Source of the DNA: Promethearchaeia archaeon
GTDB lineage: Archaea > Asgardarchaeota > Lokiarchaeia > Sigyniarchaeales > SOKP01
Length of the DNA stretch: 10,542 nucleotides
Assembly (NCBI GenBank): GCA_046497275.1
Contig: JAWOFX010000062.1
Span: forward strand, 1-10,542
Direction: 5' to 3'
Shown: positions 6,687-8,016 of the stretch, piece after piece
Position numbering within the stretch: the first letter of the stretch is position 1
How the letters are laid out: each line of letters starts with the position of its first letter
Notes under the pieces: model-generated
The model's input: only the letters and a program-made list of their open reading frames with translations
Database searches by the model: none
What the model was told of the DNA's origin: nothing
Program-made: the position numbers and the translations under genes

Positions 6687-7503
6687 GGAATTAGGGAATT
6701 TATATTCTATTATATTATGTGCGGGAGAAGGTACTCGATTTGGAGAAAAAACTGAACTAATTCCGAAACCTTTAATACAAAATGAAGAGTTGAATAATAA
6801 ACCTATTCTACTTCACACAATAAATCAATTACTTCAATCCAGAATAAAAAATATAACTATTGTTAAAGGATATCGTGGAGATCAAATAGAAGAGTGTATC
6901 TCTTCTCTTAAAAAAGAATCAGAATATAAAGATCTGAATTTAATCACCATTGATTCTGAAGGGGAATATCAAAAAGGACCATTTTTCTCGTTTCTTTCTA
7001 TTAGAAAAAACCATAAATTGCTTAAAGAAAATCATTTTTATTTGATAATTCCAGGAGATACGATTTTTGAGTCTGGGTTTTTTCAATATATTACTCAGTT
7101 TTATTATGAAAATAAATCTATTCTTTCGAAATTTCCATATCTCTTTTATCGTACTGTTAAGATCAAAAAGATTGAATCTAAAAGATATGTCCCAATAATA
7201 AAATCCAAATCTTTAAACCAATCCTTATTAAAAGAGATTCAACTTCACAAAAGAGATGAATTATCAAATCAGAAAGAAATCAAACAACTTTACCCGATAC
7301 TTTTAGTATCCTTCCCACTTTTTCAAAAAATTATTGAATCCGAAAAAAGATTTAAAGGAAATTCTCTTAGAGAGTGGCTGAATTTTTACTCCTACGAAGA
7401 AAATAAGATATACATTCATGAAATAAAGAAAGGATATGAATTTTTTGATATAGATACTCCTAACGATTTAAAATCATTAAAAAAAAAAAAAGGTGGACAA
7501 TAG
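6655..7503 (+). CDS. Nucleotidyltransferase (NTP_transferase/MobA-IspD-LicC-like fold), substrate unknown
   Basis: ILCAGEGTRF, PKPL, IVKGY, IIPGDTIF and DIDTPNDL motifs; no C-terminal LbH domain. The likely start is ATG 6655, overlapping map by 32 nt (TTG 6667 is an alternative). ATG 6598 would overlap map by 89 nt. Confidence 0.8.
   Translation: MEIPLSPQENEELGNLYSIILCAGEGTRFGEKTELIPKPLIQNEELNNKPILLHTINQLLQSRIKNITIVKGYRGDQIEECISSLKKESEYKDLNLITIDSEGEYQKGPFFSFLSIRKNHKLLKENHFYLIIPGDTIFESGFFQYITQFYYENKSILSKFPYLFYRTVKIKKIESKRYVPIIKSKSLNQSLLKEIQLHKRDELSNQKEIKQLYPILLVSFPLFQKIIESEKRFKGNSLREWLNFYSYEENKIYIHEIKKGYEFFDIDTPNDLKSLKKKKGGQ
7479..7491 (-). terminator. U13 archaeal intrinsic terminator for the candidate ncRNA
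   Basis: A13 on the + strand (T13 on the - strand) begins 3 nt after the 3' strand of the RNA terminal stem. Confidence 0.55.
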
Positions 7504-8016
7504 GTTTCATTGAAATTATGCTTTCTAGTTGAATATTTCAATGAAACAGCTTTAAATCTTCATGGAATTTAAAGTGAGTTTCTTCAAAGACATATCTATG
7601 ATGAATATATATCTACTAAAGACCGCGATAGGATAACAATATATAAGTTCCTGTGTAAAAAGCACAATAAATCCGGCACTTTGAAACTTAACGCATCATT
7701 GATAATCTCAAATTCAAAAACTCAGCAATCCAGTAAGACTTTATGAGTTTTGTAAGATGTATAGGAAATATTTGATAATTTTTGAAATTTTTATGAAAAT
7801 GTTGATATCTAAAAATCTTTTGTGTAAAGCATTACTCTCATTTACCCAGAGTTATTAGATTGAATGTTTGAAGGGGTTATTCCCAAAAAACCAACAGAGA
7901 TTTGGTAAAAAAGGATTCAATAAATATTCTCAAAATTACACCCGAATTGAATAATAACGCAACGTTTTATAGGTGTTTTATTGCTCTCAAACCAATGCAA
8001 AAAATTTCTATTGTCC
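7495..8016 (-). ncRNA. Candidate ~520-nt structured non-coding RNA, family unassigned
   Basis: No ORF of 60 aa or more. 5' GGACAAUAG (8016-8008) pairs with 3' CUAUUGUCC (7503-7495). TATA lies at -30..-23, a U13 tract follows, and there are at least 8 internal stems, several closing with G-U pairs only on the minus strand. Confidence 0.6.
7504..7547. repeat. Perfect 13-bp inverted repeat GTTTCATTGAAAT / ATTTCAATGAAAC with 18-nt loop
   Basis: Arms at 7504-7516 and 7535-7547, read directly from the sequence. Confidence 0.95.

Follow-up and report, generated by a model that had tools for sequence, protein, structure and literature searches.

Does the intergenic region between a nucleotidyltransferase (NTP-transferase) gene and a cyclophilin-like gene in a Promethearchaeia archaeon hold an RNA gene, and if so, of what kind? 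The question was raised by a stretch of 10,542 nt (the window) from contig JAWOFX010000062.1 of a metagenome-assembled genome (MAG; G000), in which an original prediction had placed a novel structured noncoding RNA (ncRNA) of about 520 nt, with its own promoter and terminator, on the minus strand. Comparison with related loci indicates that this is very probably a real, functional ncRNA gene of a new family. For the explanation as a whole, an independently transcribed, single-copy, family-specific ncRNA that would act as a protein platform in a ribonucleoprotein (RNP), sequence comparison leads us to a probability of roughly 0.65.

Layout of the predicted RNA gene

Positions 8053-8039 read on the minus strand as a transcription factor B recognition element (BRE) and TATA box (AAAAAGATTTAAATA), and G8016, the proposed start, lies 30 nt downstream of the first T of the TATA box, both as predicted. 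The first 9 nt, GGACAAUAG (8016-8008), are exactly complementary to CUAUUGUCC (7503-7495), and the proposed helix joining the two ends, P1, is indeed followed on this strand by ACC (7494-7492) and 13 U (7491-7479). The RNase P RNA of this genome has a promoter of the same type; a comparison with tRNA promoters was uninformative, ARAGORN giving only 13 tRNAs in this MAG despite a stated completeness of 98.9%. We assigned the minus strand mainly because of the direction of the BRE/TATA and the U-run. The original prediction had also favored this strand from G·U pairs that become A·C mismatches on the other one; the terminal helices of 51 homologues hold 9 G·U versus 3 A·C cells, which agrees with the minus strand and is weak taken alone. 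The features of the locus are the following:

8039-8053, minus strand: BRE/TATA promoter, AAAAAG ATTTAAATA, with TTTAAATA at 8046-8039, 30 nt before the predicted start
7495-8016, minus strand: RNA gene, predicted 522-nt transcript body from G8016 to C7495, with the promoter, terminal helix and U-run as its limits
8008-8016, minus strand: P1 5' arm GGACAAUAG, pairing with 7503-7495
7992-7999, minus strand: UGCAUUGG motif, 8-12 nt after P1, recognized by its conservation in homologues
7897-8016, minus strand: 5' domain, RNA nt 1-120, the most constrained part in the comparison with the nearest relative
7936-7948, minus strand: AAUUCGGGUGUAA motif within the 5' domain, common to the related genome G002 and genus g3
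7557-7896, minus strand: fast-evolving middle, RNA nt 121-460, from its divergence from the nearest relative
7535-7547, minus strand: P2 5' strand GUUUCAUUGAAAU, forming a 13-bp hairpin with 7516-7504 that adjoins P1
7504-7516, minus strand: P2 3' strand AUUUCAAUGAAAC, pairing with 7547-7535, with a compensatory change in G002
7495-7503, minus strand: P1 3' arm CUAUUGUCC, complement of the P1 5' arm
7479-7494, minus strand: 3' tail of ACC and U13, an archaeal U-tract terminator, with a T-rich run also in homologues

Occurrence and synteny of homologues

The region is single-copy in its own genome. BLAST against 40 related genomes gave matches only at the two ends of the candidate: the promoter and first 30 nt at 77-89% identity in at least nine genomes, and the last 50 nt in two, with 427-627 nt between the two matched ends. 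The match to G002 covered 154 nt, from 8060 to 7907 (promoter and RNA nt 1-110), at 78% identity. Within the window's own family of Promethearchaeota (Loki-type Asgard MAGs, uncultured), an exact pattern of the 5' end was found once per genome in 25 of 135 genomes, and the reversed pattern, used as a control, in none of the 135. An alignment of 41 homologues (A1) and a sequence-only model of the promoter and first 48 nt (R1) were then used. R1 matched 122 of the 135 family genomes (34 of the 36 of high quality) and all 13 genera, with one strong match per genome in nearly all 122. In an even sample of the phylum, it matched 24 of 25 genomes of the family and none of the 125 genomes sampled from 26 other families. 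As far as searched, the predicted RNA is restricted to one family of Lokiarchaeia. The original prediction had named many dispersed copies as the mark of a miniature inverted-repeat transposable element (MITE), and the family shows none.

Relaxed-pattern matches in two other Lokiarchaeial families (L199 and L200), and two more inside the family (L208 and L228), had neither TATA box nor 3' arm and were discarded as chance, as were bacterial pattern matches in a contig scan. Apparent second copies proved to be two near-identical contigs in G129 and a false positive over a coding region in G147. In G017 (C87; L262/L028) the promoter and 5' end (GAACAAUAG...GCAUUGG) are present with no matching 3' arm within 1.5 kb downstream, and a second model match lies on contig C151; the gene may be disrupted or rearranged there.

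Of 51 loci, 50 retain one gene order: AspRS-MAP-NTP-transferase, next the RNA in convergent orientation, and after it the divergent pair cyclophilin-like-VTT. The locus is flanked by the cyclophilin-like gene on one side and by NTP-transferase or MAP on the other, the former being the upstream divergent neighbor in 50 of 51 loci, at 76-209 nt.

Promoter, terminator and terminal helix in homologues

The relatives share a common anatomy: TTTAAATA about 27 nt before the G, then GGACAAUAG(UA) and, after an AU-rich stretch of 8-12 bases, UGCAUUGG; a variable interior leads to (UA)CUAUUGUCC, with a T-run behind it. The TATA columns of A1 are invariant and their spacing to the first G is fixed (41 homologues), and a T-rich run follows the 3' arm in 51 of 51 full-length homologues, which bears out the proposal that the gene has its own promoter and terminator. 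When 34 loci were chosen by the 5'-end model alone, a perfect 9-nt complement with a T-rich tail was found 343-571 nt downstream in 31 of them, compared with 88 of 1,700 trials (5%) with shuffled arms; two of the three loci lacking the complement are contig ends.

Covariation was analyzed in 51 distinct full-length RNAs, which are kin and not independent, so the shuffle tests overstate significance. P1 usually has 11 bp in this set, and 97.7% of its cells are paired. Five of the 11 pairs have changed on both sides: pairs 1 and 2 from G-C to A-U, pair 4 from C-G to U-A (with U·G intermediates in genera g5 and g11), pair 10 among U-A, G-C and A-U, and pair 11 between A-U and U-A. Neither the pairing nor the number of doubly changed pairs was equalled in any of 1,000 shuffles, and sliding the partner left 22-56% paired. 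For pairs 10 and 11, which had no role in placing the 3' end, pairing stands at 87% and includes three Watson-Crick types, a result reached by 0 of 1,000 shuffles. In this shuffle-based form, the covariation check on related loci suggested with the original prediction was positive, and by this comparative evidence the predicted terminal helix is real and under selection. The features generally expected of an independent archaeal RNA gene (BRE/TATA, purine start, U-tract, non-coding conservation and covariation) all appear to be present.

Complementary ends could also arise in a DNA element, as protein-bound inverted repeats around an AT-rich spacer, e.g., a replication origin with boxes like the origin recognition box (ORB). 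In archaeal origins, an AT-rich unwinding element is surrounded by several ORB boxes, and orc1/cdc6 is usually adjacent. The inverted repeat at the ends here is indeed perfect, near-palindromes (TTTCAWTGAAA, 7504-7516 and 7535-7547) make up the P2 arms in the window's genus, and the strand-specific wobble evidence amounts to just the 9 G·U and 3 A·C cells. Moreover, the arm of G002 (L103), GTTCCATTGGAAT, has a 12-mer that shares 10 of its 12 positions, the TTCC and GAA cores among them, with the Pyrococcus mini-ORB sequence TTCCAGTGGAACT (PMC1904270). However, every homologue has a directional BRE/TATA at a fixed distance from the first repeat base and a same-strand T-run directly after the second repeat, while the repeats are only 9-11 bp long and the mini-ORB-like 13-mers are confined to the window's genus. 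The element (27% G+C) is not markedly more AT-rich than the genome (30.4% G+C), and orc1/cdc6 lies at least 190 kb away or on other contigs in five family genomes. Compensatory changes in a 5'-domain hairpin of the g2a clade, where one pair is A-U four times, G-C three times and G·U once, also point to pairing in RNA. We consider a DNA element very unlikely.

Coding potential and known RNA families

There is no open reading frame (ORF) of at least 50 aa in any frame of 7504-8205, and stops occur throughout all six frames of this intergenic region. An mRNA for a small protein would have to use something like the 33-codon frame opened in the window by the ATG at 8018, which overlaps the RNA start. 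This has a negligible chance of being correct: GTG, ACG or TCG replace the ATG in relatives, indels that are not multiples of three fall inside conserved blocks, and a cross-genus comparison found no ORF kept between genera on either strand.

Rfam 15 gave no match in the window at the gathering score and only noise at E values up to 10 (the top match was a fungal snoRNA model, E 0.17), and no match at E up to 0.1 in 12 homologous loci from 10 genera (48.7 kb in total). ARAGORN found neither tRNA nor transfer-messenger RNA (tmRNA) in the window. These negatives agree with the absence of RNase P, signal recognition particle (SRP), 5S and tmRNA motifs reported in the original prediction. A tmRNA or tRNA-like RNA was rejected on the ARAGORN result and because the 3' ACC is not conserved, relatives having ACU, AUC, UCU, UUU or CCC. 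A box C/D small RNA (sRNA) was rejected by inspection, since P1 is adjoined by the AU-rich spacer and UGCAUUGG on the 5' side and by P2 on the 3' side; the snoRNA-like Rfam matches had E values of 0.17 or worse, far under the gathering score.

The original prediction had kept a highly diverged, expanded SRP or RNase P/MRP-like RNA as an alternative, and a general likeness exists in the end-closing helix, the own promoter and U-run, and the single copy. This alternative fails because both RNAs are located elsewhere in the genome. The RNase P RNA is full-length at C109:82647-82972 (116.9 bits; the alignment takes in CR-I, CR-V and the motifs GAGGA.A and ACAGAA), and so is the SRP RNA at C87:12-333 (model positions 1-317, 85.2 bits, E 2e-19). 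No match to the SRP clan or to RNase P/MRP was found in 7300-8250 at E up to 10, or in the 12 homologues at E up to 0.1. With the models negative as well, membership in either family was refuted, and we regard it as scarcely credible. The 85.2 bits of the SRP RNA (L004) are below the gathering score of Rfam Archaea_SRP (96.5), and standard annotation would therefore overlook the SRP RNA in this lineage; the Rfam model under-scores Loki SRP RNA.

No description of such an RNA in Lokiarchaeia was found in the literature searched. None of the known families tested fits, and by these comparisons the candidate is a new RNA family. The proposal of an undescribed archaeal RNA gene is upheld in that the locus is conserved, syntenic and single-copy, with a covarying P1 and no Rfam match.

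Constraint and the 5' domain

The nearest relative is a metagenome contig colinear with the window over 10 kb, at 94.5% identity. Third codon positions of ten flanking genes differ by 10.4% between the two, while RNA nt 1-120 show 0 differences in 120 positions and nt 461-522 show 3 in 62. From this comparison, the first 120 nt of the predicted RNA are under strong purifying selection. Between genera, the middle is unalignable, and homologues range from 332 to about 790 nt in length. One route of length change is visible in L007 (G008), whose interior has a tandem duplication (AAGAAAUGUAGCAAUGUAA twice).

Within the 5' domain, UGCAUUGG is present in 47 of 51 distinct homologues and GCAUUGG in 49 of 51. 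The AAUUCGGGUGUAA motif has the counterparts UAAUUCGGGUGUAA / UAAUUCGGGAGUAA in G002 and genus g3, and CGG-containing counterparts in other genera. No conserved internal partner of UGCAUUGG was found across genera, the best partners lying at inconsistent places, so that the motif is probably single-stranded. Its possible partner UAAUGC occurs in 21 of 51 RNAs compared with 7 expected, a count that is clade-biased. In genus g8 (L201-L205), the motif, here GUUUGCAUUGG, has a partner, CUAAUGCAAAAC, immediately ahead of the P1 3' arm, and their pairing (about -13 kcal/mol) lengthens the terminal helix; it is strong only in g8, and the other genera have no such partner at that place.

A short conserved motif in an AU-rich 5' segment, with the rest of the RNA variable and no conserved internal partner, is also what a trans-acting base-pairing regulator could look like. 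UGCAUUGG(UUU) would then be a seed acting on mRNAs or another RNA, with P1 and the U-tail stabilizing the molecule, perhaps via an Sm-like protein; seed-type sRNAs typically combine a conserved short motif with a variable remainder. However, the complement CCAAUGCA is not enriched in the genome (75 occurrences versus 60 expected), neither it nor any of three wobble variants falls at a gene start, and the two exact 11-mer complements fall inside ORFs. Among stable RNAs, the partial 16S rRNA and the SRP RNA have no perfect 8-nt complement (G·U allowed), and the RNase P RNA has a single one (UUGGUGCA, with G·U pairs). Furthermore, close relatives are identical across the whole of the first 120 nt, not in the motif alone, and the sequence of P1 is conserved beyond the needs of pairing. 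We consider a seed function improbable. The rRNA of this MAG is incomplete: half of the 16S is missing, the rest lying on C106 (model positions 4-828), and 23S rRNA gave no match.

Internal folding

The original prediction listed a series of internal stems. Of these, only 7504-16/7535-47 (P2, 7547-7535/7516-7504) gains comparative support: G002 retains the 13-bp hairpin, one U-A pair having been replaced by C-G and two pairs by G·U. The stem 7981-84/7997-8000 is not kept in G002, and the remaining ones are located in the stretch that drifts near-neutrally. A helix beside the P1 3' arm was predicted in 38 of 51 homologues, compared with 134 of 510 shuffled controls (26%), and in six genus groups the folds of the alignments were better than those of column-shuffled alignments (z -2.8 to -6.5).

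Genera g2, g5, g10, g11, g4 and g13 (e.g., L034, L214, L206 and L173) have a conserved GAUACNNGAGACA 120-160 nt from the 3' end. It is followed by a block, (AC)AAUAGGAGCUUUGAU, of which 16-17 positions could pair with the 3' tail AUCGGAGCUACUAUUGU and so compete with P1; the window's genus has neither GAUACNNGAGACA nor this block. An alternative pairing of ACAAUAGGAGCUUUGAU with the 3' tail was rejected as a general feature, the complementarity being real and its full form present in the g2a clade only.

Proposed mode of action and points against it

The P1 sequence is kept across 13 genera while P2 and the interior have become unrecognizable, so P1 is probably read by its sequence and not by its shape alone. 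A P1 read in this way, together with the adjacent unpaired motif, suggests a protein-binding platform. In the model that we propose, the conserved archaeal promoter would set the start at the first base of the 9-11-bp P1 helix, and the last bases before the U-tract terminator would close this helix, sealing the ends of the RNA. The constrained parts would be P1, UGCAUUGG 8-12 nt inside it and the rest of the first ~120 nt, together with a hairpin domain stacking on the 3' side of P1, with the middle serving as a fast-evolving spacer of variable length. The product would be a stable RNA acting in trans, in which P1 and the adjacent, probably unpaired motif could form the recognition platform for a protein partner. 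It would thus be a small RNP, comparable in its closed ends to SRP, RNase P or Y RNAs. If the gene does encode a functional ncRNA of a new family, the platform is a tentative choice of mode of action, somewhat short of even odds.

Several results weigh against this reading. RNA nt 121-460 differ from the nearest relative at 28 of 340 positions (8.2%), close to the third-codon value, i.e., near neutral. The fold of the whole RNA has a minus-strand z-score of only -2.0 (plus strand, -1.5), and RNAalifold found no consensus in two cross-genus alignments, one of the 3' domain and one of the 5' domain. The 3'-domain helices of g2/g11 are 78% paired with covariation no better than in shuffles, the blocks being complementary but too conserved to covary. 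The G+C content of the RNA is 27%, compared with 45-46% for the RNase P and SRP RNAs of this genome, and both this value and the mean of the homologues (28.7%, range 23-37%) are at or below the genome value of 30.4%. The sister family (closed, cultured-type Loki genomes) has no such RNA at the syntenic site, which is occupied by a tRNA or a phosphoribosyl pyrophosphate (PRPP) synthetase-like gene. Finally, no protein partner was identified, and the RNP mechanism is one that we infer.

The description as a structured RNA of ~520 nt was therefore overstated: with a drifting middle, low G+C and the observed range of lengths, it is not a densely structured molecule of that size. The part of this claim that stands is that the first ~120 nt and the closed 3' end are constrained. 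By sequence comparison, the predicted RNA consists of a conserved 5' domain that a fast-evolving spacer links to a closed 3' end.

The sister family also bears on the notion of a MITE-like relic, fixed in the ancestor of the family and transcribed with no function of its own. Such a relic would account for the terminal inverted repeats, the presence in one family only and the absence from the syntenic site in its sister, and a near-neutral middle that grows by duplication. However, nearly all 122 positive genomes have one copy and none is dispersed, and no target-site duplication or flanking direct repeat is visible at the ends. Both arms have changed together in several lineages, purifying selection on the first 120 nt is strong, and the promoter is conserved across 13 genera. 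The chance that the element is a relic of this kind is slim.

Comparison with known RNAs

The archaeal SRP (7S) RNA (RF01857) is likewise a stable RNA of medium size, encoded by one gene copy that has a TATA promoter and U-tract of its own, and its 5' and 3' ends pair (helix 1) to close the molecule. The candidate differs in having no covariance-model match, helix 8 or Alu-domain motifs, in its G+C (27% versus 46%) and in its locus, the SRP RNA lying elsewhere; SRP is also universal, while the candidate is limited to one family. The archaeal RNase P RNA (RF00373), like the eukaryotic RNase MRP RNA, has a closing helix P1 formed from its two ends, and it shares with the candidate the promoter type in this genome and variable peripheral expansions. 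The candidate lacks CR-I, CR-V, P4 and a model match, the true gene being that at C109.

In Y RNAs, the end stem is conserved as the protein-binding site, the interior is variable and a U-run lies at the 3' end. These RNAs and the bacterial Y-like RNAs, partners of Ro60/Rsr, match the candidate in pattern of conservation, but the analogy goes no further than layout. Y RNAs are ~100 nt long, compared with 332 to ~790 nt here, there was no Rfam Y RNA match, and no gene for a TROVE-domain (Ro60) protein was found in this genome. The large orphan bacterial ncRNAs OLE, ROOL, GOLLD and raiA resemble the candidate in being lineage-restricted, several hundred nucleotides long, found by comparative genomics and of unknown function at discovery. 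They are densely structured, with many covarying helices along the whole length, whereas the candidate is constrained only at the ends and in the 5' domain, its middle drifts, and it has no Rfam match.

Neighboring genes

The genes flanking the RNA in the window are archaeal housekeeping genes: PTH2, TruD, DNA methylase, AspRS, MAP, NTP-transferase, cyclophilin-like, VTT/DedA and Alba. The two immediate neighbors are as follows:

6691-7503, plus strand: NTP-transferase gene (MobA-like; Pfam PF12804 and PF00483), convergent neighbor, its 3' end overlapping the RNA 3' end
8206-8595, plus strand: cyclophilin-like gene (PF18050), divergent neighbor, 190 nt upstream of the RNA start

The C-terminal codons of the NTP-transferase, K-K-K-K-R-W-T-I (plus strand, 7479-7503), overlap the RNA gene, the lysine run being encoded by the complement of the U13 terminator and the TAG stop (7501-7503) lying within the P1 3' arm. 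Such an overlap is seen in about half of the homologous loci, and a gap of 3-76 nt separates the two genes elsewhere. The gene for a 525-aa N6/N4 DNA methylase (PF01555; 2751-4328, minus strand) stands alone on the opposite strand among translation-related genes (TruD and AspRS), with no partner restriction enzyme evident in the window. An ORF of 169 aa (344-853, plus strand) has no Pfam match; it is probably a real gene, because the nearest relative retains it and differs by 1.8%/1.8%/8.2% at codon positions 1/2/3.

Implications

To our knowledge, Asgard archaea, which among prokaryotes are the nearest kin of eukaryotes, have few recognized RNA genes apart from those for rRNA, tRNA, RNase P, SRP and guide RNAs. 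The restriction to one family speaks for an invention of this lineage and not for an ancestor of a eukaryotic RNA, and novelty is claimed at the level of the RNA family only, not for the mechanism. A rule for finding archaeal RNA genes by their G+C would overlook this RNA. It is possible, if on the whole unlikely, that it is the RNA subunit of a novel RNP confined to this single family of Loki-type Asgard archaea, which is large and uncultured. P1, UGCAUUGG and the 5' domain may then be its protein-binding or active core, and the rapidly expanding middle may be akin to the expansion segments of eukaryotic RNP RNAs. About 90% of genomes in the largest Lokiarchaeial family sampled carry the RNA gene, and now that its promoter, ends and core motif are defined, a simple model is enough to annotate it and to search for it.

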